A stretch of 61,927 nt of DNA, taken from positions 1 to 61,927 of the IMG/VR virus record IMGVR_UViG_3300027851_000029; one strand, written 5' to 3'. Positions 39,349 through 57,155 of the stretch are shown one piece after another. Positions within the stretch are counted from its first letter, which is position 1, and the number at the start of each line of letters is the position of its first letter. The notes below the pieces were generated by a model, which saw only the letters and a list, made by a program, of their open reading frames with translations, was not told where the DNA came from and searched no databases. The DNA comes from a virus (Duplodnaviria; Caudoviricetes). The translations under genes were made by a program, and so were the position numbers.

Positions 39349-39432
39349 GCCGTCAGTTTCAACCTAACCGGAGCCTGCCATGGGCAACCCATCAACAGAT
39401 CAACACCAGCCAAGCGGCATGAGAAGCCCGTC

Positions 39433-42147: not shown

Positions 42148-42388
42148 GTTGGCACTGGTGTTGGCATCATGTCCTGATGACCGTGAAACACCGTTGATTT
42201 TGAAGCGAAAAACTGGCGAGCGTGGAATCCTCTCGCTCCGCCAATTTGCCCCAGCGTTACCCATCAGTAACGCTGGGGCTTTCTTTTTTTCCCTCTATGA
42301 TCGCGGCTCCATCCACCAGGATAGCCCGACATTTCCAGACGTTCACGGCGATAGACCGTGTGGCATCGGTTGGCATCCGTGGTGGCAC
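42148..42388 (+). other. attP: tRNA 3'-end-like core with arm-type repeats
   Basis: GAATCCTCTCGCTCCGCCA at 42225-42243; TGGCA(T/C) direct repeats at 42148-42168 (x2) and 42358-42388 (x3). Confidence 0.7.
42248..42290 (+). terminator. intrinsic terminator behind the att core
   Basis: Perfect 13-bp stem GCCCCAGCGTTAC/GTAACGCTGGGGC plus T run. Confidence 0.85.
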
Positions 42389-42410
42389 GCAAAAAGTGAC
42401 AGGGATGCGG

Positions 42411-43565
42411 ATGCCTACAAACCAACTTACAGACGCCAAGTGCCGCGGCGTGAAGCCGACCGACAAGGCGCAGAAGCTTTTCGATGGTGGGTCACTTTTT
42501 CTATACGTTTCCCCAAAAGGCGCCAAGGTGTGGCGCCTGGCCTACAGGGTCAACGGCAAGCCGCAGACCCTGGTGATAGGCCCATACCCTGCAGTGAGCC
42601 TGCAGGAGGCCCGCCAGAAGCGCGAAGAGGCCAAGGCGGTACTCAGGGCAGGGCAGGACCCGAACGCGGCGCGCAAGGCCACGCGCAACGCCGTCACGCT
42701 GGACGAGGCCCACACCGCCTACTGGTCCGGCCGCAAAGACCTGTCCGCCTCCTACCTTGAGAACGAACGACGGGCATTCGAGATGCATGTTCAGCCGATG
42801 CTGGGCTCGAGGGTCATGAAGGACATCACCCGGGCCGACGTGCTGGCCACGCTGAACACACTGGACGCGCGCGGCAAGCACGACTACGTGCGCAAGGTCA
42901 GGATGTGGCTGGCCCAGCTCTGGGACTGGGCTATCGAGCAGGGCCACGCCACGGAGAACCCGCCGCGCAGCATCAAGCCTGAACGGGCCTTCGGGAAAAA
43001 GCAGGTGGGGCACTTCGCGGCGCTGGAGTTGCGCGAGGTGCCGGCGTTCATGGAGCGCCTGGCCATAGAGGGCGACATTCAATCCGTCCTGGCGCTGCGC
43101 CTGCTGGCCCTGACGTGGGTACGGACGAACGAACTGCGGTTTATGCGCTGGGATGAAATCGACGGAGACACATGGCTGATCCCGGCCGGCAAGATGAAGC
43201 GGCGCCGGGAGCATGTGGTTCCGCTGTCCAAGGCTTCGCAGGATCTGCTGGCGGTGCTCAAGCCACGCGCTGGCTCAAGCGTCTATGTGCTGCCCGCCGA
43301 GCACCGGCCTGACCGTCCGATTTCAGAGAATGCAATACTGGCGCTGCTGTACCGCATGGGATTCAAAGGTCAGATGACTGGCCACGGGCTGCGCTCGGTG
43401 GCCAGCACCTGGGCGAACGAGGCAGGCTATCCGCCCGACGTGATCGAGCGCCAGTTGGCGCATGTGCCTGGAGACAAGACCAGGGCTGCGTACAACCGAT
43501 CGATTTACCTCGATCAGCGCCGCGCCATGCTGGAGGCTTGGGCTATGTGGCTCTGTCGTGCGTAA
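42411..43565 (+). CDS. int: tyrosine integrase, P4-like
   Basis: LTDAKCR..KLFDGGSLFL arm-binding domain; catalytic R (VRTNE), K (GKMK), HGLR, LAH, Y (AAYNR). Confidence 0.95.
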   Translation: MPTNQLTDAKCRGVKPTDKAQKLFDGGSLFLYVSPKGAKVWRLAYRVNGKPQTLVIGPYPAVSLQEARQKREEAKAVLRAGQDPNAARKATRNAVTLDEAHTAYWSGRKDLSASYLENERRAFEMHVQPMLGSRVMKDITRADVLATLNTLDARGKHDYVRKVRMWLAQLWDWAIEQGHATENPPRSIKPERAFGKKQVGHFAALELREVPAFMERLAIEGDIQSVLALRLLALTWVRTNELRFMRWDEIDGDTWLIPAGKMKRRREHVVPLSKASQDLLAVLKPRAGSSVYVLPAEHRPDRPISENAILALLYRMGFKGQMTGHGLRSVASTWANEAGYPPDVIERQLAHVPGDKTRAAYNRSIYLDQRRAMLEAWAMWLCRA

Positions 43566-43580
43566 ATGCTTGTGCCGGTG

Positions 43581-43617
43581 TTATGCGACGGGGTTGTCTC
43601 CTAATTTAGAGTTGGGC
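43581..43617 (+). other. partial attC-like site A0 (L stem and R' only)
   Basis: TTATGCGAC/GTCTCCTAA stem, 6-nt spacer, GTTGGGC; no R'' box. Confidence 0.45.
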
Positions 43618-43799
43618 TGCGCTGAGTTTCGGCACTCGCGGACAACATCGCGAGCCACGGATCGGCTGGTCCAGCGGAAGTTCTCCAGCACCTCGCGGCC
43701 TGTTCGCGGATCACGGGCAATCCATCCCCAGCCTGGTTCATATTCGACGGTTCGCACGCGCCGCCCAACTCTGCAATCCATCGAATTCGCTTCGCTCAT
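43581..43799 (-). CDS. hypothetical protein (cassette C1)
   Basis: Starts inside site A1 and ends across site A0. Confidence 0.55.
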   Translation of the reverse strand: MSEANSMDCRVGRRVRTVEYEPGWGWIARDPRTGREVLENFRWTSRSVARDVVRECRNSAQPNSKLGDNPVA

Positions 43800-43820
43800 C
43801 GCTGATCTCCGGTGTTCTGC
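43763..43820 (+). other. attC-like site A1
   Basis: R'' GCCCAAC, AT[C]CATCGA[A]T/ATCGCTGAT, R' GTTCTGC. Confidence 0.7.
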
Positions 43821-44260
43821 AGCGGGTTGCCTTGCATGTCGGTTTCAAACTCAGCGCCCCAAGTCCAGCCCTGGCCGTCGCAGTACATGCACAGGTCTTC
43901 TTCCTCAACCTCGCTGCCATCCATCACGAAATGCCCCCGCCCTAAGCAGGTTTCGCATTCGCACTTTGGAATCCAGGCAAGGCATGAGCCTTCGTCGTAG
44001 TGCATCACCTCCTGGCACTCGCATTCGTCGTGCAGCGGCTCGCCTTCTTCATCGACGGGCCAGACGTAGAGCATCCCGTCGTTAATAAGCTGCACCTCAA
44101 ACTGGTCAAGCATCCGGCGCCCGCCGTTGACGCCGACCCACAGCGCGTAGTCCGCCAGCTCGCGCCAGTCCAGCAGTTGGGTCGTTCCGAACCTGCTGCC
44201 GTCTTCAACAACCATCTGGATTGGTAGCTCTTTGGTGGTGTCGATCACAAGGTATTTCAT
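43796..44260 (-). CDS. acidic Cys-rich hypothetical protein (cassette C2)
   Basis: RBS GGAG; CETCLGRG and CMYCDGQG DnaJ-like Zn knuckles. Confidence 0.7.
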   Translation of the reverse strand: MKYLVIDTTKELPIQMVVEDGSRFGTTQLLDWRELADYALWVGVNGGRRMLDQFEVQLINDGMLYVWPVDEEGEPLHDECECQEVMHYDEGSCLAWIPKCECETCLGRGHFVMDGSEVEEEDLCMYCDGQGWTWGAEFETDMQGNPLQNTGDQR

Positions 44261-44282
44261 GGTCGTCTCTCCGGTTGTCCGT

Positions 44283-44339
44283 GCAGAACTCTGCGCTCAA
44301 GCGGGACCGCTGCGCGGCCCCTTAGCTTCGGTGTTCGGC
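44283..44339 (+). other. attC-like site A2
   Basis: R'' GCAGAAC, GCT[C]AAG[C]GGG[A]CCGC/GCGGCCCCTTAGC, R' GTTCGGC. Confidence 0.85.
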
Positions 44340-44632
44340 GACTCGCGCCCCAGCCTAGCCTGAGCCTCCCAGGCTTCCCCGTTGTCGGTCCAGCTTGCAG
44401 CCATCGCGCTGCAGCACGCAGAGCACCAGCGGTAGTTCATCAGTGCTCCGTCAAACACAGCAGCTAGCAACCGAACGCGCTCGCCGGGCGTGATTTCTTG
44501 GCGACACATTCCGCAGGTTCCGCCCTTGCGTGCCGTGCCGATCTTGTCTTTAAGCACCCGGTCGCCCGGCGCCCCAAAGTCCCCCTCAAACGGGTTGACC
44601 TTCAGGCACTCAACTTCATCAAAATTCATCAT
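44297..44632 (-). CDS. Zn-finger hypothetical protein (cassette C3)
   Basis: ARK..TCGMC...CSAC; the C-terminus reads into site A2. Confidence 0.7.
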   Translation of the reverse strand: MMNFDEVECLKVNPFEGDFGAPGDRVLKDKIGTARKGGTCGMCRQEITPGERVRLLAAVFDGALMNYRWCSACCSAMAASWTDNGEAWEAQARLGRESPNTEAKGPRSGPA

Positions 44633-44940
44633 CGCGGCGCCAAATCTAGCGGTGCCGCGCAGCGCTTGCAGAGACCTGACGCATCCATGAATTGCTCGAC
44701 CTCGGTTGGTTGAGTGGCTGCCTTGATCGCCTCAATTGCATCGTCAATCGTCTGTAGGTCTTCTTTTGGGAGCCGACCGGCGCCGATAATCCTGACGTTG
44801 AGCAATCGACAAATCAGCGAATCATCCATCCTTGGAATGGCATTCATAAGCTCTCTCCTAAAAACATCTCCACGCAACGTTTGCACAGGATCAGTCCACG
44901 CATCGCCGGTCGTCCGCAGTGTTCGCATTTCATTCGACAT
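44629..44940 (-). CDS. hypothetical protein (cassette C3)
   Basis: Coupled to the downstream gene. Confidence 0.55.
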   Translation of the reverse strand: MSNEMRTLRTTGDAWTDPVQTLRGDVFRRELMNAIPRMDDSLICRLLNVRIIGAGRLPKEDLQTIDDAIEAIKAATQPTEVEQFMDASGLCKRCAAPLDLAPR

Positions 44941-44949
44941 CCTTGTTCC

Positions 44950-45111
44950 TTAGTTGTCTGCAGTACAGATCGTCACGGCCTTGGTGGTTCCGTCTGTTTC
45001 AATCAGCAGGCCGCACACCTGTTCATCTGTTTCTGTGTCGCAGTTGTAGGCGTACACCGTCGCGTGCTGCGGCGCCTGTTTCAGTGCTTCAATGAGGTCC
45101 TCGACTGTCAT
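44950..45111 (-). CDS. 53-aa hypothetical protein (cassette C3; not in the ORF track)
   Basis: MTVEDLIEALKQAPQHATVY..., RBS AAGGGA. Confidence 0.65.
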   Translation of the reverse strand: MTVEDLIEALKQAPQHATVYAYNCDTETDEQVCGLLIETDGTTKAVTICTADN

Positions 45112-45132
45112 CGCGTGTCCCTTCTCGGCAGT

Positions 45133-45184
45133 GCCGAACTCTTAAATCGACCGGACCGAAGGCCGGTCATCGGTGGTGTTCAAA
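45133..45184 (+). other. attC-like site A3
   Basis: R'' GCCGAAC, AT[C]GACCGG[A]CC/GGCCGGTCAT, R' GTTCAAA. Confidence 0.8.
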
Positions 45185-45368
45185 CCTTCACCCCATGCGC
45201 AACCAGGGTGGACCGCTTCCAGCCCGAGGTCTTCCGCGAAAGGGCGACATCGTATGGCGGCAACTTGTTCGCCTTGTACATCTTGCGCACGGTGTCGCTG
45301 CACACATGGAGCATCTTCGGAAGATCGCCGCGCTTTATGATCTCGTTTGGGTCTTGTTCGGTTGTCAT
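45180..45368 (-). CDS. excisionase/AlpA-like HTH protein
   Basis: IIKRGDLPKMLHVCSDTVRKMYKANKLPP..GWKRS; stop codon lies in R' of site A3. Confidence 0.7.
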   Translation of the reverse strand: MTTEQDPNEIIKRGDLPKMLHVCSDTVRKMYKANKLPPYDVALSRKTSGWKRSTLVAHGVKV

Positions 45369-45526
45369 GGCCGTTGTTCTCCTTGGCAAACAGGGCACGG
45401 AAGCAGGTAGTCATTCCAAGGGTCGCGCCCATCACCATGACAGCGCTCGCACTCATCGTCGTAGTCATCATCGATGCACTCATCGCAGCCGTTGCATCCG
45501 TCCTCGCATGTTCGCTCTGTGGTCAT
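45365..45526 (-). CDS. small Cys-rich protein
   Basis: CERCHGDG..CPVCQG; overlaps at both ends. Confidence 0.6.
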   Translation of the reverse strand: MTTERTCEDGCNGCDECIDDDYDDECERCHGDGRDPWNDYLLPCPVCQGEQRP

Positions 45527-45879
45527 GCCTGCTCCTGTGTGCTTGTAATGGCTGCGTCGAATCCGATTAGCCATGACTCGTATCTCCCGCCAGTTCGCAA
45601 TTCAGACCATGGAGCTACGTCGCCGTTCATGTGCAGGCCTGCAACTCCGTGGCTGAAGTCGATCAGCGACTCCACTTCTGAAAGCCCGTGCTTCGCCTCT
45701 GCAAGCTGCTGCTCAAGCAGTGCGATCTTGTTGTTCAGTGGCTCGGTGAATCTGCGGACAAGCTCGATGTCTTCGTCCATTGGTGGAAGCCGCTCAAGCA
45801 GTGCGATCCGCTCGTTCAGAGCCTTCACCTCTGCATGGTGAGCGCTGGCCAGGTTCCGGCGTTGTGAGTCAGTTGGCAT
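45523..45879 (-). CDS. Ead/Ea22-like mosaic protein
   Basis: SHGVAGLHMNGDVAPWSEL..GG.YESWL motif; N-terminus duplicated in 46085-46747. Confidence 0.65.
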   Translation of the reverse strand: MPTDSQRRNLASAHHAEVKALNERIALLERLPPMDEDIELVRRFTEPLNNKIALLEQQLAEAKHGLSEVESLIDFSHGVAGLHMNGDVAPWSELRTGGRYESWLIGFDAAITSTQEQA

Positions 45880-45881
45880 GG

Positions 45882-46088
45882 TCAATCCTTCAGTGCGGTA
45901 GCAACACAGTCGGTCAAGCGCTGAATCTCATCCTGCAGCCGACTGCACAGAACGCCCAACTCGGTAAGCTGTCGGGCCAGAAGTGGGCAAGGGCGTTGTT
46001 GAATAGATTGCTCACCAACAAGCTCTTGCAGGACCAGCAGGCGAGCGCGTATCTTTTCCTCGTCGCTGTAAAAGTGTTCTCGACTCAT
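45882..46088 (-). CDS. hypothetical protein
   Basis: Coupled ORF. Confidence 0.5.
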   Translation of the reverse strand: MSREHFYSDEEKIRARLLVLQELVGEQSIQQRPCPLLARQLTELGVLCSRLQDEIQRLTDCVATALKD

Positions 46089-46747
46089 GGCGTCTCGCAT
46101 TTCTCGACCGTGGCCGGTGTGATGCCTTTTGCGCCGCGAACAAGCGGGAACCACTCGATGGCATCTGGGTGTACGGCGTAGTCCACATGCCAAAGCACTT
46201 GCCCGAATGGGCTCATCTTGCTGTAGTGGTAGCCGACAACCTCTTGGTCGGTCAGCGGCACCGCCTTGGGTGGCGCGGTGCAGAGCTGACGAATGGGCCA
46301 CGAACCATCCTTGATAGTGTTCTCTATGTGACGCTCGTCAACGAACCCGTGCCACGACCCGTCGCGCGCTTGGAACTGGTGCGTCACCGGCTGCGCTGCC
46401 TGCTCGACTTCCATATCCACGATCTTTGCGAGCAGCGGTGTGCAGGCTGCAGCGACAAGTGACTCAGTTTCTTTGCGGCACCGCTCGACTTGAGCCTCAA
46501 GGGCTGCGATGCGCTCCCGCACAGGTTCTGCGCCATGCCAGTTGCCGGGCTCGCCAGTTCCACCGCTGCACACCCGGTAAATCTCGGCGATAGTGGCGTT
46601 TGCCGTGCGAGCTTCCATGGCGTGCGCCTGGGCTTCCTGCTTGAGTCGCGCGGACATGCTTGAAAGCGCGCTGATCCGCTCGTTCAGAGCCTGCACCTCT
46701 GCATGGTGAGCGCTGGCAAGGTTTCGGCGTTGGGCGTCAGTTGGCAT
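46085..46747 (-). CDS. Ead/Ea22-like mosaic protein
   Basis: LKQEAQAHAMEARTAN..GEPGNWHGAEPV; RBS AGGAG. Confidence 0.7.
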   Translation of the reverse strand: MPTDAQRRNLASAHHAEVQALNERISALSSMSARLKQEAQAHAMEARTANATIAEIYRVCSGGTGEPGNWHGAEPVRERIAALEAQVERCRKETESLVAAACTPLLAKIVDMEVEQAAQPVTHQFQARDGSWHGFVDERHIENTIKDGSWPIRQLCTAPPKAVPLTDQEVVGYHYSKMSPFGQVLWHVDYAVHPDAIEWFPLVRGAKGITPATVEKCETP

Positions 46748-46979
46748 CTGAGGCTCCTTTCTCGACGGCACACCGAACGCCACTGTCGAAAGGCTCAAGC
46801 GCATCACGCAGCGCATCGGCGTTCCAGACCAAAGATTCGGCCAGCGATTCGTCTGAGCTGGTGTTCAGCTTCTTTGCAATCTCGTCCAGAGGCTTCATGT
46901 GCTTTGCAATGGTTTCTGCCTTGCGCTTTGTGAGGCGTTGCAGCTCGGCCTCGTCGGCGGGTGTCCATTTCTCTTTCAT
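46737..46979 (-). CDS. hypothetical protein
   Basis: RBS GGGAG; ends in the AVEK junction motif. Confidence 0.6.
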   Translation of the reverse strand: MKEKWTPADEAELQRLTKRKAETIAKHMKPLDEIAKKLNTSSDESLAESLVWNADALRDALEPFDSGVRCAVEKGASDAN

Positions 46980-47218
46980 CACTCGCTCCCTTTCTCGACC
47001 GTGGGTCGCTCGTTGCTGTAGGGCGTGTACTCGCCATCGCCGATGTCGCACATATCCTCGAAGCACTCCGGGTGCATCTTGCTTGTGAACCACTTGCCGT
47101 CATAAACGCCGGTCTGGTGCACGTAGCCATCGCCCACATCGATGCTCTCGCCGCAATAGGTGCACTGGTGCGCCTTGCGGGCTACTCGGTTCTCATGCGG
47201 GTTGTAAAAGTCGGCCAT
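46979..47218 (-). CDS. Zn-finger hypothetical protein
   Basis: ARKAHQCTYCGE..HPEC; related pattern to 44297-44632. Confidence 0.7.
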   Translation of the reverse strand: MADFYNPHENRVARKAHQCTYCGESIDVGDGYVHQTGVYDGKWFTSKMHPECFEDMCDIGDGEYTPYSNERPTVEKGSE

Positions 47219-47889
47219 CACTCCCCCTCTTTCTCGACCGTGGCCGGTGTTCCGAACGCGGCCCACAGTCGTTTGCGCCACCAGTAAGCGCCTTGCTCGG
47301 TCGGGTGCTTGTCTCCGAACCACAGGCCATCAAGCGGGCCAGAGCCACCAAGAAACGACAGAATTGCTTGCTGCTCATCGGTCAGTGGCGCCGCCTTTGG
47401 TGGCGATGTGTAGAGCATCCTGACTTCGTATCCCGGCCACTCAACAGGATTGGCCTGAACCATGCGGACATGTTCAACAGTGCACCGTCCCCATGAAGCG
47501 CCAGTGAACCGAGATTGACCCTCCACCGGCTGCGCTGCCTGCTGTGCCGCAAGCCATCGACGGACCTCGCGGATGACGATGGAGAAAACTGAGCTATCCA
47601 ATCTAATGCCGATAGCGGTCTCAGCTTGATAGCGAACATCTTCCCAGTCAGGCTCTGGTCCTATGTCCTTCGGGACAACGACCGTCATCCATCCTGGCGG
47701 TAGTTCGGCCTGCTCGACTTGAGCTGTCAGGGCTGCGATGCGCTCCAGTAGTGGAGCTGTGGCTGCGAACCATGCGTGTCTGGCAACGTACTTGTCCAGC
47801 GGTCCGCGTTCCATTGCTGGCTTGAACTTCGTGCCATACCAGTTGTTGAATTCAGCTTCTTCTGGTCCAGGGGTAAGAGCCATGTTCAA
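47218..47889 (-). CDS. mosaic hypothetical protein
   Basis: Shares ERIAAL.AQVE, AAQPV, PPKA.PLTD and PATVEK blocks with 46085-46747. Confidence 0.7.
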   Translation of the reverse strand: MNMALTPGPEEAEFNNWYGTKFKPAMERGPLDKYVARHAWFAATAPLLERIAALTAQVEQAELPPGWMTVVVPKDIGPEPDWEDVRYQAETAIGIRLDSSVFSIVIREVRRWLAAQQAAQPVEGQSRFTGASWGRCTVEHVRMVQANPVEWPGYEVRMLYTSPPKAAPLTDEQQAILSFLGGSGPLDGLWFGDKHPTEQGAYWWRKRLWAAFGTPATVEKEGE

Positions 47890-48563
47890 TCCTCCTTCTG
47901 TTGGTTGACTGGCTTGGGTTGCGCAATCACAGCACGCAAGTCCAGAATCTCACGCTCCATGTATTCGACCTTGAGCGCGTTCGGCCAATACTCTGGCTCG
48001 CTTGTGGGGTGCTCGTCTTTGATCCTGTCGTGCCACATGCGGATGATCGGCTGCGCCTGCACTGGCTGCGCCACTGAATTGCACTCAGCGCACGGAGATT
48101 CGACAAAGTGGCGGAACGTCTGGCACGTCACTCCATGGGACTCGTAGGCTTCAACGACCTTGAGCAGATCGAAGTAACGAGAGGCCAGAACTGCGTTCGT
48201 TTCATTGATGGACTCATGGGAATCTCCAGCGGGCTGCGCCACTGGTTGCGGCTGTGGTGCTGCGGAGAGAGCACGGTTGCGAATCGTTATGAAGTAGCGC
48301 AAGAAAACGTCATGGCTCAGGCCGAACGAAAGGGCCTCCTGATTCGCGCTGTGCGCCAGTTCGCTCAAGTCGTCGTCGCACAAGTCATCCGGCACCGCTG
48401 GCGTGTTGGCTTCGATAGCCGCGCACACTTGCCGGTGAAAATCCTCCAGTGTGTGCGGCAGGAACGTGTAGGCGACCTTTTCCAATTCGCTGCGGTGGCT
48501 GTACCGGCTGGCCGTGCGGTGCGCCAGCTCGGTGAATTTTTCGAGGCTGATCGGCGTGCTCAC
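47886..48563 (-). CDS. mosaic hypothetical protein (GTG start)
   Basis: RBS AGGAG; AQPV linkers. Confidence 0.6.
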   Translation of the reverse strand: MSTPISLEKFTELAHRTASRYSHRSELEKVAYTFLPHTLEDFHRQVCAAIEANTPAVPDDLCDDDLSELAHSANQEALSFGLSHDVFLRYFITIRNRALSAAPQPQPVAQPAGDSHESINETNAVLASRYFDLLKVVEAYESHGVTCQTFRHFVESPCAECNSVAQPVQAQPIIRMWHDRIKDEHPTSEPEYWPNALKVEYMEREILDLRAVIAQPKPVNQQKED

Positions 48564-49084
48564 AGTTGCTCTCCTTGTGCTTTGGCAATCGCTGCGCGAC
48601 CGATCACGGCCCATTTTTTCAAGTTGCACCCCATGTCTGCGGGAACAGCCTCTGCATATTCGACGGACCAGTTCAGCGCCTCCAGCAGTTCCGCATTGAT
48701 TGCAGACAGGCGGTCGCGCTCGGCGATGAGTTCAAGTTCCTTGCCGTAGCTTTCGTTGATGAAAACCTTGATGGGGCGATCCATCTCAACGGATAGCGCC
48801 ATGCCAGCCGTGTCCAGTCCGTCGCAGTAGTTCCACGCAGCCACGAGGCGGCGGGCGTTGGCTTCGCGCATGTTCGGATTGTTTTCACCAAAGTCGATGG
48901 CAACGGCGACAAAGGCGTTCTTGTCAACGCCGACGATTACCGTCTCAGGACAGCCCTCGTTGTCAAAGAGAGATGCGGAAACGGCAAGTTTTCCCGGTGT
49001 GTGTTCGCTCATCTTCATTCCCTCGTATACCCGGTGCTCGCGCTGGTAGCGCTCTAGCAGGGTTTCGTCGTTGTGGGTTGGCAT
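48560..49084 (-). CDS. hypothetical protein (HTPG...ANARR..A family)
   Basis: MSEHTPG, EANARRLVAA, ELLEAL, RAAIAKA motifs; start may instead be 49012. Confidence 0.65.
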   Translation of the reverse strand: MPTHNDETLLERYQREHRVYEGMKMSEHTPGKLAVSASLFDNEGCPETVIVGVDKNAFVAVAIDFGENNPNMREANARRLVAAWNYCDGLDTAGMALSVEMDRPIKVFINESYGKELELIAERDRLSAINAELLEALNWSVEYAEAVPADMGCNLKKWAVIGRAAIAKAQGEQL

Positions 49085-49281
49085 TACGCTGCCACCTGCA
49101 GAATGTTCATCTGATCCTGCACGCGCTTGGCGGCCTGAAGCTGCTCTTCGGTCATGCGGTCGTACTGGCCCAGGCCCAGCAGCGGGCGGATCTGTTGGCC
49201 GATGGGTGAGCTGGCGCCCTGGTGGTTCCAGAGCACGTAGCACAGTGAGGCGTGGACGTTGGGTTTCATGGGTTCGATCAT
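49084..49281 (-). CDS. hypothetical protein
   Basis: LWNHQGASSPIGQQIR..LG motif. Confidence 0.6.
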   Translation of the reverse strand: MIEPMKPNVHASLCYVLWNHQGASSPIGQQIRPLLGLGQYDRMTEEQLQAAKRVQDQMNILQVAA

Positions 49282-49472
49282 GTTTTTCTCGTCGTGAATT
49301 TGGGTTGCCCGTTCCCCACCATTGGCCGCTATGAATTGCCAGCGGACCGGCCTGGTTGATCCATCCTCTGAGCCAAAGAAGTCTTGAGGGGGCTCATTGG
49401 TGAACTGGTGGGGCTTGTCACCTCGTGGGCAAGGCGAAGCTGAAAGGATTTGTCCGCTCCCTCTGTGTTGGG

Positions 49473-50414
49473 TCAGGTGGTGGGCGCAGGGTTGAGTGCT
49501 GGCGCCGGCTGAAACTCGCCGCCCAGTGCGCCAATCAGCGCCGGGATCAGCTTGCGAAGCTCTCCGGTGGCCAGCGCCACATCAGCATCAAAACCGCTCT
49601 CACTGTCGTCGGCCCGGTCATCGAACACGCCTTCGAGGAATGCAATCTTCTTGAGTCGCATGCAGTCGTCCAGCACGAAACCAACCCGGCCTTCCCAGCT
49701 CATGGCGGTCCACTTGGGCAGCTTTCCCTCGGTGATGTGCTTGCGAACTTCTTCGGTCTGGATGCTGTGGCGGTTGAACTTGACCACCGACTTCTCTTCA
49801 TCTGCCGATCGCAGCTCGCACGCGCGCTCGATGATGAAGCCGTGATCGACGTACAGTTCATCGGACACCTCCTGAGAGGCCAGCCACTGCGTTATGGCGC
49901 ATTGTGGCGTCATGGTGGTCTGCAGCAGGACCAGGGACAGGTCATTGAAGGCGTTGACCAGGGCCGTCACCAGTTCGTCGAGCTTGCCCTGGCTGCTGGC
50001 GTCGGTCATCAAAAGGCCCGCGGCCGGGTCGATCCAGACCAGCACCGAGGATTGCTTGGGGAATGCCTGCGGCAGCAGCGCCAGATAGGCGTCCTCGCGC
50101 AGTTCCTTCATCTGCTTCTTGCCTGGCTTGCGGCCGGTGGTGGCCTCGATGTGGTCGGCCTCGGCCTGCGCCTTCTCGCGCACCGTGGCGCCGGGCACGC
50201 TCTTGGTTTCGATGCGCAGCTTCATGATGCGCTGGCCGTCGATGGCTTCGACCATGGCGTCGTGCTCGTTGCCGCGTGGCGGCACCCAGCCAACGGACTT
50301 GTCTTGCGTGGCGCCGCAGGGCACGAACTGGTCGGCCATGAGTGCGGATTCCATGGCTTCCAGGGCGGGAGCCCAGCCAGAAGCGATGCGGTAGATCGTG
50401 AGGTTCTTGAACAT
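49473..50414 (-). CDS. rdgC: recombination-associated protein RdgC
   Basis: MFKNLTIYR, GWVPPRG, LLPQAF, FDADVAL.TGEL. Confidence 0.95.
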   Translation of the reverse strand: MFKNLTIYRIASGWAPALEAMESALMADQFVPCGATQDKSVGWVPPRGNEHDAMVEAIDGQRIMKLRIETKSVPGATVREKAQAEADHIEATTGRKPGKKQMKELREDAYLALLPQAFPKQSSVLVWIDPAAGLLMTDASSQGKLDELVTALVNAFNDLSLVLLQTTMTPQCAITQWLASQEVSDELYVDHGFIIERACELRSADEEKSVVKFNRHSIQTEEVRKHITEGKLPKWTAMSWEGRVGFVLDDCMRLKKIAFLEGVFDDRADDSESGFDADVALATGELRKLIPALIGALGGEFQPAPALNPAPTT

Positions 50415-50424
50415 GGTTGTCCGA

Positions 50425-50670
50425 TCAGTATTCGACTTGATCCCACTGCTTATCAGTGGGTGCTTCTTTGTGGGTGAAAACGGCCCAGTCGCCCTTGTGT
50501 TCTGGTCGCGGGTCCATGTGCAGGTGTCCTGGCTGGCATTCGCTCGGGTCCATTCCGCAGGGTTTCAGGTCTTCGAGGCTGCAGCCGCATGGCGCGTTTG
50601 GGTCCACAAGGCCGGTGAACCCGTTGTCTTGCAGGTATTGCTTGACGATCTTGATGACTGTTTGGCTCAT
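50425..50670 (-). CDS. small Cys-rich hypothetical protein
   Basis: YL..NGF.GL..CGC..DL.PC..C.PG. Confidence 0.65.
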   Translation of the reverse strand: MSQTVIKIVKQYLQDNGFTGLVDPNAPCGCSLEDLKPCGMDPSECQPGHLHMDPRPEHKGDWAVFTHKEAPTDKQWDQVEY

Positions 50671-51041
50671 GCCGTCACCGCCTTCGCTTGCCGGCGCACG
50701 CCATCGGCAAAAGACCGGGCTCGGCCGCCGATGTTGTTCATGCTGCTGCGCGGCGGGCTGGTCAGCGTCACGGAATCGAACGCACGGGACATCGCATCGG
50801 CGCGCTGCTCAAGGCATTGGGTGGCCACGGCCTCGAAGTCCATGCCAAAGGTCTTGGTGAACCACTCGTCATAGCCACCAAACAGGAACATTGGCACGCT
50901 GTTCGCCTCGCCGGCGTCGGCGCCCAGCGCGTCAGCGCCGTACTTGCCATTGCCCAGGATGCAGACCATCACGGCAGCGATCTGCAGGTCTTCGGCCTCG
51001 AAGTGGTAGGCGTCGCTGGGGTTGATCAGGTTGAATTTCAT
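50667..51041 (-). CDS. hypothetical protein
   Basis: MKFNLINPSD; RBS GGAGG; overlaps at both ends. Confidence 0.7.
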   Translation of the reverse strand: MKFNLINPSDAYHFEAEDLQIAAVMVCILGNGKYGADALGADAGEANSVPMFLFGGYDEWFTKTFGMDFEAVATQCLEQRADAMSRAFDSVTLTSPPRSSMNNIGGRARSFADGVRRQAKAVTA

Positions 51042-51742
51042 ACGGCCTCCGTTTGTTCTGTTGGTGCAGTCGCGGTCTTCGCGTTGTCGTAGGTCTTGAT
51101 CCCCCAGGCGATGGCGTAGCAGCACCACAGGAAATCGAAGGTGTATTCGCGGCAGCTCCACTCCCAGCATTCGGACATGTCAAACGACACGCCGTCGATG
51201 CTGGTTGTGAAGTCGCGCGCAGAGTCATACGCCCGCACGTCACCGTCGTCCGCGTTGCACAACACGTCGATCTCAAGCTCTTCCCAGAGCTGGGCTGATT
51301 TGCTGGCGAACTCGTCGCGATCCGTCTGCAAGGCTTCGTCGTTCGGCTTCTCCATTTCGACCCAGTTGTCGTAGGCCTCCTTGACGTGCTGACGGAAAGA
51401 TTCGGCGCTGTATTCCTTGGCGTGGCGGCTGTTTGGCGCCCGCAGCTTCTCGCTCCAGTAGCCAGGGTTGATGGCGAGATGGGTTCCCTTGCGCGTCAGG
51501 TATTCGCGGTCAGTGCGGAAGAACTCGAACATGTCGTGCAGGCGACGAAACACGAAAGTTCCCATGTCTCCGTCGATGCACAGCGTTCCGTCCCAGGTGA
51601 TCAGGTCAAACCAGTAGGCGCTTTGATCCGGTCGTTTGAATCGCAGATGCCGGTGCACCCCATCGTTGCGGATGACTGTCATCTGGTGGTTGGCCGCGTC
51701 TTTCAGGAAGCGGTCTTCATCGCAGGCCTGGGTAGTGCTCAT
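51038..51742 (-). CDS. conserved phage hypothetical protein
   Basis: HRHLRF..YWFDLITW.G.L.I.GD.G..F.R; INPGYWSEK; WCCYAIAWGI. Confidence 0.8.
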   Translation of the reverse strand: MSTTQACDEDRFLKDAANHQMTVIRNDGVHRHLRFKRPDQSAYWFDLITWDGTLCIDGDMGTFVFRRLHDMFEFFRTDREYLTRKGTHLAINPGYWSEKLRAPNSRHAKEYSAESFRQHVKEAYDNWVEMEKPNDEALQTDRDEFASKSAQLWEELEIDVLCNADDGDVRAYDSARDFTTSIDGVSFDMSECWEWSCREYTFDFLWCCYAIAWGIKTYDNAKTATAPTEQTEAV

Positions 51743-52554
51743 GCGGCCTCCAGCATCTTGGAAGCATTGGCGGCGATGGCGGGCTTGCTGCGCAGCGTGA
51801 ACTCATACCGGTCCACAAGGCGCATGAACTCGATCAGCTCGGATTCCAGCGCCTCGATATAGGCCTCGTCGCGCTCGACCACGCGCCAGTACAACTCCTT
51901 GCCGACGACGGACAGGGCCGGGCAGTACATGGCGAAGTGCCAGCGGGCGCGGCCGGTGATCCACATACAACCCTGGATCTGGTCGATGTACTTGCTGATG
52001 TCGTGGTCCAGCACCACGTCGCGCACACCTTCTGGCGACACGAGGCACTTGTATTCGCTGCCCGCGTCGTCAGAAATGAGGCCATCGGCGGATGCTCCGA
52101 ATTTTCCGTCGTCAGTGACCACGAACCCGGCGCGAAACACGACTTCACCGCTGGCCATCTCGTGCGCGGCGCGTGCCGCCGGCTCCAGCTCGTGGCCGCG
52201 CTTCATGGCCCACGTCTCGAAGCCTTCGTCCAGCGGCTTGCCGGCGATGCGCTCGACCGCTACGCGGAAGGCGTAGTTCTTGGCCGCCTCAGAGAAGTCG
52301 CCGATTGGCAGGCCTGCAATGGCGCGCTGCACGGTTTCCGTCAGCTTGGGCTTGGTCTTGTACTCGGCCATGGCCTGGGCAACCTCGGGCGGCTCGCCGG
52401 CCCGGATCGCGTCCACATACTTCTGCTGCTGCTCGGTCAGTCCGCCAACACGCTCACGCGCGACACGGAACATGCTGGCGGTGATCACCCCGGCCCTGGC
52501 GATGTGCCAGGATTCGGAGCCTTGTTCGCATTCAATGATTCGCATGCTGCTCAC
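51739..52554 (-). CDS. YqaJ/lambda-exonuclease family recombination nuclease
   Basis: QGSESW..R.G.ITAS, MKRGHELEP, GASADG, EYKC, QIQG.MW. Confidence 0.92.
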   Translation of the reverse strand: MSSMRIIECEQGSESWHIARAGVITASMFRVARERVGGLTEQQQKYVDAIRAGEPPEVAQAMAEYKTKPKLTETVQRAIAGLPIGDFSEAAKNYAFRVAVERIAGKPLDEGFETWAMKRGHELEPAARAAHEMASGEVVFRAGFVVTDDGKFGASADGLISDDAGSEYKCLVSPEGVRDVVLDHDISKYIDQIQGCMWITGRARWHFAMYCPALSVVGKELYWRVVERDEAYIEALESELIEFMRLVDRYEFTLRSKPAIAANASKMLEAA

Positions 52555-53528
52555 TCCCCACGGATCGCGGCCAGGCGCGTGTTGAACAGGGCTTCCAGCT
52601 CGGGGCGGGCGGCTTCACGCTCGGCCTCGGGTACGGCATCAAGCCAGTCCATCGAAACGTAAAGCGCATCCTCGGACTTCGCCGACTCCAGCTTCTTGCG
52701 CACATCGGCCACGGTGGTGACGATCTCGCCGGTTTCTTGGTTGGTCGCAGGCGGTGGCGTGGTCTTGGCTCCGGTTTCCACCGTGCGGGCGGCGTCGGCG
52801 CGCTGGGCCTGGTCTTTGAAGTCTTGATGCTCCTTGGTGCCGGCCAGCTTCTGCTGCACATCGGCGCCCAGGCTCTTCCAGAACGTCACGTAGGCCTTGG
52901 CGCCCTTGGCTGCGGCTTCGTCGGCTGCAGTGATCTGGTCGGGCGTCCATGCGCTCACGACTTCGGCGGTGCCCATGTCGCGGGGGATGTCCATCACCTC
53001 CTCGGCCACCGGCATACCGCGCAGCACGTCGGCGAAGACATCGCGCAGCGCAAAGGCGCGGGCGCGCATCTGGCGCATGCGCTTGGGGTACTGGGTCCAG
53101 GGGCCCTGCTTGCCCACCAGTCCGGCCAGCTTCGCGTCGTCCATGCTGAACGTGCGCACCTGTTCAGACTCTCCGCGGCGCTTCGTCTTGCAGGTCGCGG
53201 TGTGGCCGTCGTCGCTCTCCTGCACGTACTCGCAGGCTGGGCTGCTGCGCACCAGTGCGATCACGGCATCACCCCAAAGCGCGGCGCGTCCGTTGATGAC
53301 CGCGATGTTGGACAGGGCCTGCAAGGGCTTGAGGCCCAGCTCGGCGCCCCACTGCATGGCGATCAGGCAGTTGCCGGGCTTGCCCTTGAAGTCCTTGGGC
53401 ACAAGATCACTCTCGGCCAAGTAGTTCGAGAAGGTCAGCGCCTGCTCAAAGGTCTGAGGACTCAGATCGACCTGGCTGGCAGGCTTCACAGACAGAGCCA
53501 TGGATTCGGCGCGGGTGGTGGTGTTCAT
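52551..53528 (-). CDS. RecT-like single-strand annealing protein
   Basis: G.ELGL.PLQAL.NIAVINGR, W..YPKRM..RA..FALRDVFADVLRG; adjacent to the exonuclease. Confidence 0.85.
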   Translation of the reverse strand: MNTTTRAESMALSVKPASQVDLSPQTFEQALTFSNYLAESDLVPKDFKGKPGNCLIAMQWGAELGLKPLQALSNIAVINGRAALWGDAVIALVRSSPACEYVQESDDGHTATCKTKRRGESEQVRTFSMDDAKLAGLVGKQGPWTQYPKRMRQMRARAFALRDVFADVLRGMPVAEEVMDIPRDMGTAEVVSAWTPDQITAADEAAAKGAKAYVTFWKSLGADVQQKLAGTKEHQDFKDQAQRADAARTVETGAKTTPPPATNQETGEIVTTVADVRKKLESAKSEDALYVSMDWLDAVPEAEREAARPELEALFNTRLAAIRGE

Positions 53529-53551
53529 GGGTGTTTCCTTTCGGGGTGAGG

Positions 53552-54772
53552 TCAGGCGATGTCAGCAACAGCCGGCGTCCATTCGATAAAGTCGTCAGCG
53601 CGGGCACACAGCCACTGGCAGGCGGTTTCTTGGTCGACTCCGTACTCGAAGGCGATGCACTTGATCAGCGAGGCGGCAGGCGGCGCGTCGGTGCTTGAAT
53701 CGATACTGGTGCGAGCAGCAGGTGCCGTGTCCACGAGGTCGGCATCAGGCAGGGCGCGGATGACGTTGATCTCCAGCGGCGCAGCCTGAAACTCGTTGAG
53801 CGCTGCGATTTCCTTCTCGGAAAACTGCAGGTCGTCGGCGATGGCAATGCCAACATCGGCGATCACGCAAACTGCGCCGGCCAGGGCTTTCTTCTCAGGC
53901 GCCACATCAGCGGGGATGGCTGCCTTGGCGGCCTCCAGATCGGCGCGCATCCGTGCCACCTCGGCCTGCTGCTCGGCCAGCTTGTCGGCGGCCTCTTGTT
54001 GCTGGCGGGCGAACTCGGCACGCTCGGCGGCCAACTTGTCGGCATCGGCTTTCTGCTGGGCCGCCAGCTCGTCGGCCTTCTGCTTGGCCTCGGCCTGCTG
54101 TCGGGCCAACTCTTCGCGTTCGGCCTTGAGGCGCGCGGCCTCGGCTTCCGTGGCCAGCCGGGTGTTCAGCGTGTTCTCGACCTGCTGGCGCGTTTCGGCG
54201 AACACGTTGACGGCCTCGGCCTCAAATTCCTCGAAGCCCGTCATGTCCAGGCCATTCATGCGCTCGACCAGCCGGCGCACGGCATCGCTGCTGCGGCAAT
54301 CCTGAGCCAGACGGGCAAATCCGCGGATATCCTGAATGCGCGCGCCCAGGTCCAGCAGGCGGGCACGCTCTTTCTCTTCGGCCTCCTTCTTGATGCGGGC
54401 CTGTTCATCGTCCCAGGCATCGCGCAGGGCCTTGAGGCGCTTTTCCTCGGATTCAACAATGGCGATCAGACGGGCCTGCTCTTCCAGCACCGCCTGGTTG
54501 AACTTCTTCGCGTCTTCGCGCACCTCGTCGCCGCGCGCCTTGACGCTGGTGCGTGCACGCATCAATTCCATGGCGGCACCATGCACCTGCTCGCGGCCAA
54601 CCTTGTCTTTGATCTCGACCAGCCCGGTGTGCTTGGCGGCCATGGCCAGCAGATCCTGCTCGGTCTGGGTGGAATTGAGCGCGACCAGCGCGCGGTCGGC
54701 CGGCGCCAGATCGGTGATGGACGGTGCGTCGGGCTGCGCCACGTCGATGGGGAGATGGGTTTCAGTGCTCAT
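53552..54772 (-). CDS. long coiled-coil phage protein
   Basis: A/E/K/Q/R heptad repeats; usual position upstream of recT. Confidence 0.8.
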   Translation of the reverse strand: MSTETHLPIDVAQPDAPSITDLAPADRALVALNSTQTEQDLLAMAAKHTGLVEIKDKVGREQVHGAAMELMRARTSVKARGDEVREDAKKFNQAVLEEQARLIAIVESEEKRLKALRDAWDDEQARIKKEAEEKERARLLDLGARIQDIRGFARLAQDCRSSDAVRRLVERMNGLDMTGFEEFEAEAVNVFAETRQQVENTLNTRLATEAEAARLKAEREELARQQAEAKQKADELAAQQKADADKLAAERAEFARQQQEAADKLAEQQAEVARMRADLEAAKAAIPADVAPEKKALAGAVCVIADVGIAIADDLQFSEKEIAALNEFQAAPLEINVIRALPDADLVDTAPAARTSIDSSTDAPPAASLIKCIAFEYGVDQETACQWLCARADDFIEWTPAVADIA

Positions 54773-54793
54773 GGTGTTCTCGTATGTGGTTGG

Positions 54794-55168
54794 TCAGGCG
54801 GAAAGGCCGGCAGCTTCCAGAAGCTCGGCATGCTCTTTGACTGCCTCTTCGGCGATGGCTTGAACGGCCTTTGCTTGGCGCTCCAGGGCGTCTATCAAAA
54901 GAGCCTGGAAGTTGGCCTTGATTGCGGCTTCAAGGTGCAGCTTCAGCGCCATGGGCATGGGGTGGTAGTTGGTGGCTCCGTCGCTGTACTGGTGGTAAAC
55001 GGTTGGCGCCGATTCGCCCGATGCGATTGAAAAACTGCGCAACGCTCCGATGCCGCCGCCGCCACCGTGATACCTGTCTCCGATCAATGCGGCCCATTTC
55101 GCAGAATCGCTGGCATCGCGTTTCGCTGCTTTGTATTGGTCAATCTTGGTGCTCATGGTGTTGCTCAC
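54794..55168 (-). CDS. hypothetical protein
   Basis: Coupled ORF. Confidence 0.65.
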   Translation of the reverse strand: MSNTMSTKIDQYKAAKRDASDSAKWAALIGDRYHGGGGGIGALRSFSIASGESAPTVYHQYSDGATNYHPMPMALKLHLEAAIKANFQALLIDALERQAKAVQAIAEEAVKEHAELLEAAGLSA

Positions 55169-55428
55169 TTCGCGGAAACAAAAAGGGTTGCAGCCAGCAC
55201 CATGGAGAGAACAATCACCAGGGCGGCAATCTTGAGGTACTCCGCCAACAGGCGGACGGAAGCGATCGGCTCCGTCATTTCGACGGAGGAATCACCATTG
55301 ATCTGCGAGTCCATGAACGGGATGTCGATGACCGGCAGGCCAATCAGCCCGGTCTGTGCGCAATGGCACTCGGGAAATTTGCACGGTTCGTCGTTGGCGC
55401 CGACGCAGCGCTTCAAAGCTGTTTGCAT
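55165..55428 (-). CDS. hypothetical membrane protein
   Basis: N-terminal Cys cluster, C-terminal TM helix; RBS GAGG. Confidence 0.6.
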   Translation of the reverse strand: MQTALKRCVGANDEPCKFPECHCAQTGLIGLPVIDIPFMDSQINGDSSVEMTEPIASVRLLAEYLKIAALVIVLSMVLAATLFVSAK

Positions 55429-55435
55429 TCGATCC

Positions 55436-55603
55436 TCACAAAACAAGAGCGGAAACAAAAGCCAGCGCAAGGCAGATGGCCACGGCGAGACTGGCGGAAC
55501 GGGTGCGAGCGAACAGCGGTCGCGAGACTTCGATTGCGCAGCCGTATTCGGGTCCGAACGGGAAGGCGTCTTGCATCGTGCGTGCGTATTTCTTGGTGTT
55601 CAC
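55436..55603 (-). CDS. 55-aa membrane peptide (not in the ORF track)
   Basis: GTG start; YARTMQDAFP..YG.AIE plus a TM helix. Confidence 0.6.
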   Translation of the reverse strand: MNTKKYARTMQDAFPFGPEYGCAIEVSRPLFARTRSASLAVAICLALAFVSALVL

Positions 55604-55794
55604 TGCTCACCCCACTTGAGTTGTTCAGCCAATGCGCGGGCATCGTCGCGGCGGCGCAATTCGCCGCTGTTTTTCATTTCCATGTAGGCCAGGTCGGCGC
55701 GGCGCGCGGCTTCGTCTGCCTGGCGGCGGATGTCGCTGTCGGGCGGTGCGAACGGCGCCAATGCAATGGCCAGCGCGTCAGGGATTCGTTGCAT
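55600..55794 (-). CDS. hypothetical protein
   Basis: RBS AAGGA. Confidence 0.55.
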   Translation of the reverse strand: MQRIPDALAIALAPFAPPDSDIRRQADEAARRADLAYMEMKNSGELRRRDDARALAEQLKWGEQ

Positions 55795-55873
55795 GACGAT
55801 CCTTTCGGGAAGAAAAAAGCCAGCCACTGTTTCCAGGGCTGGCGAAAAGCACCGAAGTGCTTAGGGAGGTAAT

Positions 55874-55928
55874 GTTTAACTACCTGATGCATCGGACGGA
55901 CAAGCCGCCGATGATCTAGCGGTTAGCC
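55874..55928 (+). other. attC-like site A4
   Basis: R'' GTTTAAC, AT[G]CATCGG[A]CGG/CCGCCGATGAT, R' GTTAGCC. Confidence 0.8.
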
Positions 55929-56161
55929 GTCTTCATCTGGCGCAACGTATCGAGGTGCAGGATGTCAATCGCGGTGTGTATCTCTCTGCAATCACGCCCG
56001 CCCATGCTGCCGTCCTCGTGGCGCGTTGGCTTGCTGCATTCGGTCATCGCCATCGCAAACGCCTCAAGGCGCCCTTGCAATCTTGCAACGTCCATCGCCC
56101 GCGCAAAATCTTCGCGGTCGGCGCGTTCGGTTTCTGTCTCTTGCTTCAGTTCAATGTGCAT
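55916..56161 (-). CDS. hypothetical protein (cassette C5)
   Basis: RBS AGGGG; stop codon inside site A4. Confidence 0.6.
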   Translation of the reverse strand: MHIELKQETETERADREDFARAMDVARLQGRLEAFAMAMTECSKPTRHEDGSMGGRDCREIHTAIDILHLDTLRQMKTANR

Positions 56162-56175
56162 GTCGTTCCCCTTTT

Positions 56176-56427
56176 TCATGCGTGCGGCACCGGGCCGCCA
56201 TTTTTGTGTTGCTCGCGCATCAGTTTCCCAAGCTCGGCCGCGCCGTCTCCGGCAATCGTCATGCCCTCCTTCTGCTGCCTGTAGTCGGCGAGCATCGAGC
56301 ACTCCGGGAAATCGCAAAGCGGCCCATCCACATGCGCACAACTTCCAGCGCTCTTGTCGCGGTACAGGTCGCAGCTATACACCGGGTCTGTGCTGCGGTC
56401 GAACAGCCGTTTCAGCCATGCAAACAT
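56176..56427 (-). CDS. Cys-rich hypothetical protein (cassette C5)
   Basis: RBS AAGGAG; C..Y....CAHVDG.LC....C. Confidence 0.65.
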   Translation of the reverse strand: MFAWLKRLFDRSTDPVYSCDLYRDKSAGSCAHVDGPLCDFPECSMLADYRQQKEGMTIAGDGAAELGKLMREQHKNGGPVPHA

Positions 56428-56451
56428 CGTTTTCTCCTTCTGTCGTATGCC

Positions 56452-56517
56452 GGCTAACCCGTTGGTCAAGCCGACCGTCCTCCTGCGGCGTCCGTCGGCT
56501 TACCGCTGGCGTTAATA
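56452..56517 (+). other. attC-like site A5
   Basis: R'' GGCTAAC, GGT[C]AAGCCGAC/GTCGGCTTACC, R' GTTAATA. Confidence 0.85.
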
Positions 56518-56738
56518 GATTTACAGCCAACACTCACTTAAAGCCGTGTTGACATTGGGACAGCGTAGCTGACACGCTGATTGCTGGCCATCAAATAGAA
56601 CCTCTTCGAGGTAGCCTATGCTTTCTCTCACCCGGACTTGATCGTTACGGTTACCGGCCTGAATAAGTTCCACTCTTTGACGGCACTGCGTTTGCAGTAC
56701 CTTTTCGTCGGCATCTCCCTATTGCTAGGCTCCGACTT

Positions 56739-56829
56739 GAGAGTGATTGAAGGTGGTGTCAGGTCTTAAAGGAAATAGCCCGCGTGTTACCGAAGACCCT
56801 CTCGCTGTCCACCACCTTCAATCACTCTC
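56739..56829. repeat. perfect 20-bp inverted repeat with inner stem
   Basis: GAGAGTGATTGAAGGTGGTG (56739-56758) / CACCACCTTCAATCACTCTC (56810-56829); inner GGTCTT/AAGACC. Confidence 0.9.
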
Positions 56830-57028
56830 TAACTACACACAAACTAACCACCACGCAGCGGCCTATGTGCGGGACGGTCTACCGTCCACTGTTTACCGTC
56901 TCACGCCCGGTAAAGCGCTGGCTGTCGTCTGCTCCGAAGAGTGCGAACCGCCAGGTGCAAGTTTTGAAAGAACCCATGTCGCCGCGTCGATCCGGGGCTG
57001 CTCCGACTTGTTTGTCGGCATGGATGTA

Positions 57029-57068
57029 GTCTAACCTAGATAGACACAACAAACTAACAAGATTAGAC
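57029..57068. promoter_or_regulatory. OL operators (x2) and leftward early promoter
   Basis: GTCTAACCTAGATAGAC and AACTAACAAGATTAGAC, 23 bp apart; -10 TAGACT on the minus strand. Confidence 0.75.
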
Positions 57069-57107
57069 CAAGCCGACAGACGGTAGCCTTCCGCGTTGCG
57101 CAGACGC

Positions 57108-57133
57108 AAAAAAACCCGCTCAGTGGCGGGCTT
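57108..57133 (-). terminator. terminator of the cI-lipoprotein transcript
   Basis: CCCGC/GCGGG stem followed by a T run on the minus strand. Confidence 0.75.
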
Positions 57134-57155
57134 GGCTGTTGTTGTGTTGCTTAAG

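Follow-up and report, generated by a model that had tools for sequence, protein, structure and literature searches.

Can a temperate phage hold small accessory genes as integron-type cassettes, and if so, which enzyme would move them? Integrons are bacterial gene-capture devices, and recent work sees them as stores of anti-phage defence genes. The question is raised by IMG/VR virus record IMGVR_UViG_3300027851_000029, analyzed here over its whole length of 61,927 bases (hereafter the window; G+C 60.7%, CheckV completeness 96%), in whose early operon a sequence-only reading had described attC recombination sites and proposed that cassettes are gained and lost there by means of a host integron integrase (IntI) acting in trans. 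The window is a temperate phage of freshwater Burkholderiales and holds two clusters of attC sites without an integron integrase. Array 1 (43611-45184) extends from the stop of the phage integrase gene (int) to the stop of an excisionase-like gene and contains three cassettes, and array 2 (55874-56517), lying where the leftward early genes are closest to their promoter, contains one two-gene cassette between two attC sites (Table 1). The host clade was assigned to Burkholderiales because relatives of the integrase and of its neighboring 72-amino-acid (72-aa) open reading frame (ORF) were found in three further viral contigs (L001-L003), two of which are prophages, residing in Hydrogenophaga aromaticivorans D2P1 (L002) and in a Burkholderiales metagenome-assembled genome (MAG; L003).

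Five attC sites and their cassettes

Five complete sites had been proposed from the letters of the sequence, and the coordinates and boxes of all five were confirmed. Each is 52-66 nt long, begins with NNNNAAC (R'') and finishes with GTTNNNN (R'), and the two boxes are able to pair at every site, with complementarity inside a site at 4-6 of 7 positions. At attC2, attC4, and attC5 a crude detector of attC architecture placed the extra unpaired bases, said to lie on the same arm, solely on the + strand's 5' arm, the one-sidedness that sets the strand of an attC. The same was seen by eye at attC3 and did not hold at attC1. The latter site is decayed, lacks a stable fold, and lies within overlapping coding sequence, where it spans the stop/start overlap (ATGA) of two - strand ORFs. 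The strongest fold among the five belongs to attC4, which is laid out as 7-nt box, 5-nt spacer, 3 bp, extra base, 6 bp, extra base, 3 bp, and loop, and the GTT of attC3 overlaps the stop codon of the adjoining gene. A sixth, partial site suggested at 43581 gave no match to the covariance model described below; it belongs to the conserved 3' flank of int, which is the boundary of the array and not an attC.

Complementary cassette ends are the footprint of a circular cassette inserted between G and TT (written G/TT here). In the window the GTTNNNN closing one site is the complement of the NNNNAAC opening the next in all three neighboring pairs of model-defined sites, and in 4/4 cassettes the six bases that follow the G are complementary to the R'' box of that same cassette; the four complementary pairs of left R' and right R'' boxes listed in the sequence-only reading match at 16 of 16 variable positions. 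The pair attC3/attC4, whose members are 10.7 kb apart and have unmatched boxes, was excluded from the neighboring pairs. When the arrays of four further viral contigs (L028-L031) were added, 9 of 11 neighboring pairs obeyed the rule, compared with a background of 41 of 342 ordered pairs, and the two failing pairs matched at 3 and 2 of 4 variable positions. Bacterial arrays obey the same rule, as judged by eye.

Taken alone, neither the complementary boxes nor the hairpins are decisive. The + strand of the window has 100 pairs of GTTNNNN with a complement 100-1500 nt downstream, and 14 chained links, including an unrelated four-pair chain at 36900-40515 within other genes. The architecture detector made 27 calls in the window vs. 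a mean of 17 in 20 shuffles, and the fold z-scores of the sites range from +0.63 to -2.91 (Table 1). A hairpin scan of every AAC...GTT span by fold energy was uninformative, being swamped by long spans, and was discarded. Because the detector was too unspecific on the window, it was used solely for choosing training sites in bacterial arrays, for which the cassette side was fetched for 20 intI genes of the host family (Hydrogenophaga relatives) and for the intI of the L002 host. It made 147 calls in 19 of these arrays, with bulges on the 5' arm only in 104 and on the 3' arm only in 13, on the strand read away from intI.

The evidence that carries the identification comes from a covariance model, R1 (58 positions, 19 pairs), whose input was 57 distinct attC sites of at most 72 nt, taken from 13 host-family chromosomal integrons in which they adjoin intI, with no phage sequence among them. 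Searched against all 61,927 bases on both strands with filters off, R1 returned attC5, attC2, attC1, and attC4 as its top four matches and the sole ones with E < 0.01, so the covariance-model check suggested by the sequence-only reading recovered its sites, all on one strand, albeit with attC3 only at rank 7. All five match on the + strand, and no - strand match was found at these places. As a control, 31 of 31 matches (23-59 bits) in six integron loci outside the training set fell on the strand read away from intI, and the far side of the L002 host's intI gave no matches. Four of the five window sites exceed 20 bits, a limit that section 2.1 of PMC9892861 quotes for another model. Judged against this independent yardstick the sites are therefore attC-like, with the + strand as top strand. 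They share sequence and structure with the attC sites of host-family chromosomal integrons, which are strikingly uniform in length (57-60 nt): in both, 7-nt boxes are followed by a spacer of about 5 nt, by stem segments of 3 and then 6 bp with an extra base after each, and by an inner stem with its loop. The attC sequence is in part shared as well, and the cassette ends are complementary in both. Two other places resembled attC sites. One, at 51305-51347 in coding sequence, is a weak match to the model (15 bits, E 0.23) with complementary boxes (GGCGAAC ... GTTCGGC) and no stem, and is probably due to chance. The other, at 58051-58067, was rejected as an attC remnant; it is a palindrome (GGCTAAC-TAG-GTTAGAC) that scores 15 bits from its boxes alone, and an operator is more likely, because it is flanked by a helix-turn-helix (HTH) repressor gene (57596-57997, - strand) and a + strand ATG near 58074.

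Table 1. Coordinates of int, the attC sites, the cassettes, and their neighbors in the window, with three arrays from other viral contigs. Fold z, z-score of the DNA fold.
Feature	Position	Strand	Evidence and remarks
Phage integrase (int), tyrosine recombinase with arm-binding domain	42222..43565	+	Pfam Arm-DNA-bind_3 4.6e-25, Phage_integrase 1.9e-17, Phage_int_M 7.8e-15; phrog_1 integrase 3e-66
int 3' flank, conserved; 5' boundary of array 1, attI/attG position	43566..43611	+	ends at G/TT (43611/43612); common to window, L002, and L011; includes the proposed partial site
Cassette A	43612..43814	-	ends TTGGGC ... GCCCAAC
attC1 (decayed)	43763..43820	+	R1 24.3 bits, E 1.4e-3; 8 non-standard pairs; fold z +0.63
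Cassette B	43815..44333	-	ends TTCTGC ... GCAGAAC; 154-aa ORF (43796-44260, -)
attC2	44283..44339	+	R1 39.1 bits, E 4e-7; extra bases on + strand 5' arm only; fold z -0.49
Cassette C	44334..45178	-	ends TTCGGC ... GCCGAAC
attC3 (weak, short)	45133..45184	+	R1 14.4 bits, E 0.31, rank 7; fold z -1.84
Conserved 72-aa ORF, weakly excisionase-like; fixed 3' neighbor of array 1	45180..45398	-	phrog_66 excisionase/regulator, 7e-4
attC4	55874..55928	+	R1 22.9 bits, E 3e-3; fold z -2.91
Cassette D	55923..56511	-	ends TTAGCC ... GGCTAAC
attC5 (top-scoring site; promoter-proximal end of leftward genes)	56452..56517	+	R1 45.9 bits, E 1e-8; one extra base, 5' arm of + strand; fold z -0.66
Array in L093, adjoining a serine integrase	2540-6654		9 attC (E <= 0.01, one strand); ORFs antisense to sites
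Array in L119, adjoining a strand-annealing protein and replication genes	388-5179		13 attC (E <= 0.01, one strand); ORFs antisense
Array in L088, amid replication and HNH genes	3500-5447		4 attC (E <= 0.01, one strand); ORFs antisense

The window therefore has three attC sites in one 1.4-kb stretch and two in another of 0.65 kb, with no intI in the record, in keeping with the definition of clusters of attC sites lacking integron integrases (CALINs) as at least two attC sites close together with intI not nearby (PMC9892861). The family model of integron integrases, TIGR02249, had no match anywhere in the window, as the sequence-only reading had expected, and int, the integrase next to array 1, is a phage enzyme with an arm-binding domain; neither array is a complete integron, which would have intI with attI alongside and a Pc promoter.

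The cassettes encode small proteins. Cassette A has a 72-aa ORF (43581-43799, - strand) that starts in attC1, stops in the int flank, and has no Pfam or PHROG family match. In cassette C there are three, all on the - strand: 111 aa (44297-44632, stopping in attC2; phrog_19515, 5e-17), 103 aa (44629-44940), and 53 aa (44950-45111). Cassette D encodes, likewise on the - strand, the 83-aa protein P0001 (56176-56427; phrog_31522, 2e-13) and an 81-aa ORF (55916-56161, stopping in attC4) for which no relatives were found in viral contigs. The ORFs ending at 44297, 55916, and 43581 all cross G/TT and stop in the neighboring attC or flank.

With cassette genes on the - strand, according to their PHROG matches, and attC top strands on +, the ORFs run antisense to the sites, in the direction of the leftward phage genes. 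In a typical cassette the ORF is on the attC top strand and readable from the integron promoter Pc, which is not the arrangement in the window. Of 62 cassettes in bacterial arrays, 54 had their largest ORF on the top strand and 6 on the bottom strand, and 2 gave none. Given these counts and the PHROG genes on the - strand, the earlier description of the ORFs as inverted is correct; the strand assigned by R1, on which it depends, was right in 31/31 control matches. Host-family integrons are adjacent to intI and have their ORFs on the top strand, whereas the phage arrays lack intI and have theirs on the bottom strand. The mirror reading, with the - strand as top strand and the ORFs canonical, was rejected, as R1 matches all sites on the + strand and, in addition, the array is bounded on the + strand by a plain GTT on the 5' side and by a full attC on the 3' side. 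The largest-ORF call gave 5 top, 6 bottom, and 1 none in the window and its relatives and mislabels known - strand window genes. Because of this its counts in IMG/VR arrays (38 bottom, 25 top, 3 none in 66 intervals) are only a rough sign of a difference from bacterial arrays, the call being unreliable in high-GC DNA. A strand call based on G+C at third codon positions was dropped for its poor calibration on bacterial cassettes (38 top, 24 bottom).

Cassette differences among related phages

Comparison of related phages shows differences of whole cassettes at G/TT points. On the left side of array 1, the end of int and its 46-nt flank are common to the window, L002, and L011, and the three differ right after GTT (alignment A3), each following the end rule with boxes of its own (GTTGGGC/GCCCAAC in the window, GTTCAAC/GTTGAAC in L002, and GTTCGGC/GCCGAAC in L011). 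At the right edge five records agree over the excisionase-like gene from TTCA on and differ to the left of GTT (alignment A4). Between these edges L001 has one unrelated gene and zero attC; L002 has one different cassette with two small ORFs, ending in an attC 80% like attC2; L011 has one different cassette with unrelated ORFs, ending in an attC3 near-identical to that of the window (50/52 bases; R1 17 bits); and L003 contains a portion of cassette C, and its attC3 preserves the stem via changed bases, with GCT replacing GTT. Homologues of attC2 were found at L002 1594-1650, adjoining the excisionase-like gene, and at L031 2421-2483. The DNA of array 2 has no counterpart in L001-L003. In L011, a metagenome contig, positions 720-840 and 846-1265 contain an L001-type HNH-like gene and then the very end of int once more, together with the 46-nt flank; in this contig the array boundary travels with an int-end/flank fragment.

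Four public sequencing runs, including X6, were analyzed as assembled contigs, in which uncovered parts carry no meaning, and no habitat claim is made from runs with a small share of matches. Since these are assembled contigs and not raw reads, they show variants and not rare excision. An X6 contig carries attC2 alone (44286-44345) with unlike flanks on either side, an X6 contig covers cassette B (43811-44322) with 4 differences and then diverges, and an X6 contig matches 55810-55924 and is unlike the window beyond, a break within 2 nt of G/TT at 55922/55923. Other contigs connect 43591 to 45133. These variants come from public freshwater and groundwater runs.

Homologues of P0001 (44-94% identical) are present in the four viral contigs L028-L031, between attC sites of up to 57 bits and antisense to them. 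One reversed cassette of L030 (880-1533), in an array that also has a P0001 homologue, is a Mom-like DNA modification gene (PF25680, 1e-39).

Similar arrays are found in further viral contigs. A 14-base motif of one attC subtype occurs in at least 119 places in viral contigs, many of which, by a rough estimate, are expected to be chance matches. Among the 80 loci listed, R1 made 102 matches at E <= 0.01 in 36 loci, and the other 44 had none; in the viral arrays among these listed loci, cassette ends are perfect in 55 of 65 neighboring pairs. Three such arrays lie in the early regions of temperate phage contigs (L093, L119, and L088; Table 1), where ORFs fit between the sites and have the direction of the flanking phage genes. 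One cassette of L093 encodes a DHH phosphoesterase-like protein (phrog_4771, 9e-110).

The enzyme at work and competing explanations

The best explanation, to which we give a probability of about three in four, is that these are phage attC arrays with cassettes, worked by host IntI in trans. A host supply has indirect support, as intI was found above the TIGR02249 cut-off in 132 of 301 host-family genomes sampled and the L002 host has an intact intI (431 bits). Host-supplied IntI would act on the bottom strand in its folded form, in this phage the sense strand of the cassette genes; array 1 may have been seeded by insertion at a plain GTT site (an "attG"-type site) downstream of int; and the cassettes would be small accessory early genes, read with the phage early operon. 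Early transcription might, more speculatively, expose the bottom strand. We infer that host IntI does the work and that exchange is ongoing. The interpretation given in the sequence-only reading is supported, the computational checks that it suggested having all favored it, with the caveat that two of its five sites are weak or decayed (attC3 and attC1).

Several observations weigh against this explanation. Recombination is inferred and not observed, and assembled contigs cannot reveal circle junctions; R1 was built for this analysis and is not an established attC model; and the host clade rests on relatives, not on the window's own host. No IntI above the cut-off was found in the L003 host MAG. 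P0001 was absent from the 401 host-family genomes searched, so that exchange with a bacterial integron is undocumented. A single cassette, C, contains three ORFs. Breakpoints are mixed as well: the prediction that relatives would break at G/TT holds at both edges of array 1, but L003 shares only 44650-45369 and so parts from the window at 44650, inside cassette C, and an X6 contig has breakpoints at 44322 and 44797, not at attC sites. The rest of the early operon is mosaic, with attC absent there. Because of these off-site breakpoints and the attC-free mosaic, ordinary phage recombination also shapes the region.

The off-site breakpoints and the mosaic are what one would expect if the arrays were fossil, that is, if IntI had inserted cassettes once and the attC sites were now mere short shared linkers at which general recombination, e.g., by the phage's own RecT-like (52551-53528) and RecE-like (51739-52554) pair, swaps genes. 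Array 1 may indeed be partly fossil, as attC1 is decayed and attC3 reaches just 14 bits, and attC3 is near-identical in the window and L011 although the adjoining ORFs are unrelated, with homology stopping at the outer edge of the R'' box and not at G/TT. General recombination can, however, preserve complementary cassette ends and not create them. Three to five records diverge right at GTT on both edges of array 1, attC2 and attC5 score on par with bacterial sites, and the arrays of many phage contigs have the high share of perfect cassette ends given above. On balance we regard wholly fossil arrays as unlikely.

Two other sources of the pattern are far less probable. The phage's own integrase is encoded only 46 nt from the array 1 boundary and might be thought to recombine the sites, but it is an arm-binding enzyme outside the integron-integrase family, array 2 is 12 kb distant, and in L093 an array of this kind adjoins a serine recombinase; because the integrase type differs in this way among array-bearing contigs, int is very unlikely to be the enzyme. 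Alternatively, the sites could be RNA hairpins of the leftward transcript, serving processing, stability, or termination, and resemble attC by convergence or chance. They do lie between genes on the transcribed strand, attC2 has in its stem a G-T pair on the - strand only, and a - strand hairpin with a T-run follows attC4. An RNA role nevertheless provides no account of the complementary cassette ends, E-values of the attC model are as low as 1e-8 and only at these sites, Rfam searched at gathering scores over the whole window matched zero families, and the fold energies are mostly unremarkable; we consider this origin highly improbable.

Under the preferred explanation, with host IntI acting in trans, a wider proposal can be framed, which we offer as tentative. 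Burkholderiales, and perhaps other high-GC Proteobacteria, might have temperate phages that keep a "reverse" cassette pool of their own in their early operons, in which the sense strand of the gene is the recombinogenic attC bottom strand. As part of the SOS response, integrase activity rises and prophages are induced (PMC9892861). DNA damage would, on this proposal, induce both the prophage and the host intI, early transcription would expose the bottom strand, and host IntI would shuffle accessory, possibly counter-defence, genes.

Known systems and neighboring features

Small accessory genes that vary among relatives at sharp boundaries are familiar from phage "morons" and the module boundaries of lambdoid phages. 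The variation described here is likewise sharp, but structured attC sites and complementary cassette ends are not predicted by those models.

The locus is not nearly unique, since phage genomes with attC clusters have been published before. Qi, Rajabal, Ghaly, Tetu and Gillings (2023) reported CALINs in phage genomes, 17 among 10,705 NCBI phage genomes, and IntI1 recombined 5 of 6 phage attC sites tested, which came from virulent phages of Tetrasphaera, Polaribacter, and Pseudoalteromonas (PMC9892861). Those CALINs resemble the arrays of the window in having attC cassettes without an intI of their own and in the proposal that bacterial IntI acts in trans. They differ in that their cassettes are oriented as in bacteria, or their attC sites are divergent, whereas the window ORFs are antisense. 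Our literature search on integron parts in phages returned only this paper, the main text of which describes no all-antisense array, no early-operon array, and no cassette-level differences between relatives, and nowhere contains the string "Burkholderi"; its supplementary tables may list similar cases. What is new here is accordingly the antisense orientation of ORFs relative to attC, the early-operon placement in temperate phages, and the cassette-by-cassette turnover. IntI also inserts cassettes at GWT sites of genomes, in either orientation, after which attC hairpins can be lost (10.1101/2022.09.11.507474). The left edge of array 1, with ordinary DNA up to G/TT and then a cassette, is as predicted for an attC x attG product. 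That work concerned E. coli chromosomes in the laboratory, whereas here the setting is a natural phage with further cassettes downstream.

If host IntI does act on these arrays, phages exploit a host enzyme for exchanging small early genes, part of phage mosaicism has a site-specific cause, and the origin of integron cassettes, a long-standing question, gains a testable source. Were there a "reverse" cassette pool, reversed genes would be silent once captured by a bacterial integron, and the pool would be the phage-side mirror of integrons that store anti-phage defence genes. The related prophage in a cultured Hydrogenophaga strain with intact intI is material for a test.

Among deposited phages (the "phages" collection), megablast with both arrays gave zero near matches, and zero tRNA genes were detected in a scan of the window. 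The excisionase-like 72-aa ORF at the right edge of array 1 had no Pfam match and is 91-97% identical in L001, L002, and L003; relatives of it were found at 2 loci in the genome scan and at 4 in the metagenome scan. The leftward genes form a long - strand series that includes the RecT-like and RecE-like genes. Immediately downstream (leftward) of attC4, at 55805-55850, is the GC-rich - strand hairpin followed by a T-run, and because it adjoins attC4, cassette D may be a short immediate-early unit ending at a terminator. Within the structural gene region a single + strand ORF of 3110 aa occupies 26465-35797. The roughly 600 nt (56520-57150) that separate attC5 from a terminator-like site of the - strand (57112-57133) have no convincing ORF; an extended inverted repeat lies there at about 56737-56830, along with several CTAAC motifs, and this stretch may hold the leftward promoter, operators, or an attachment site.

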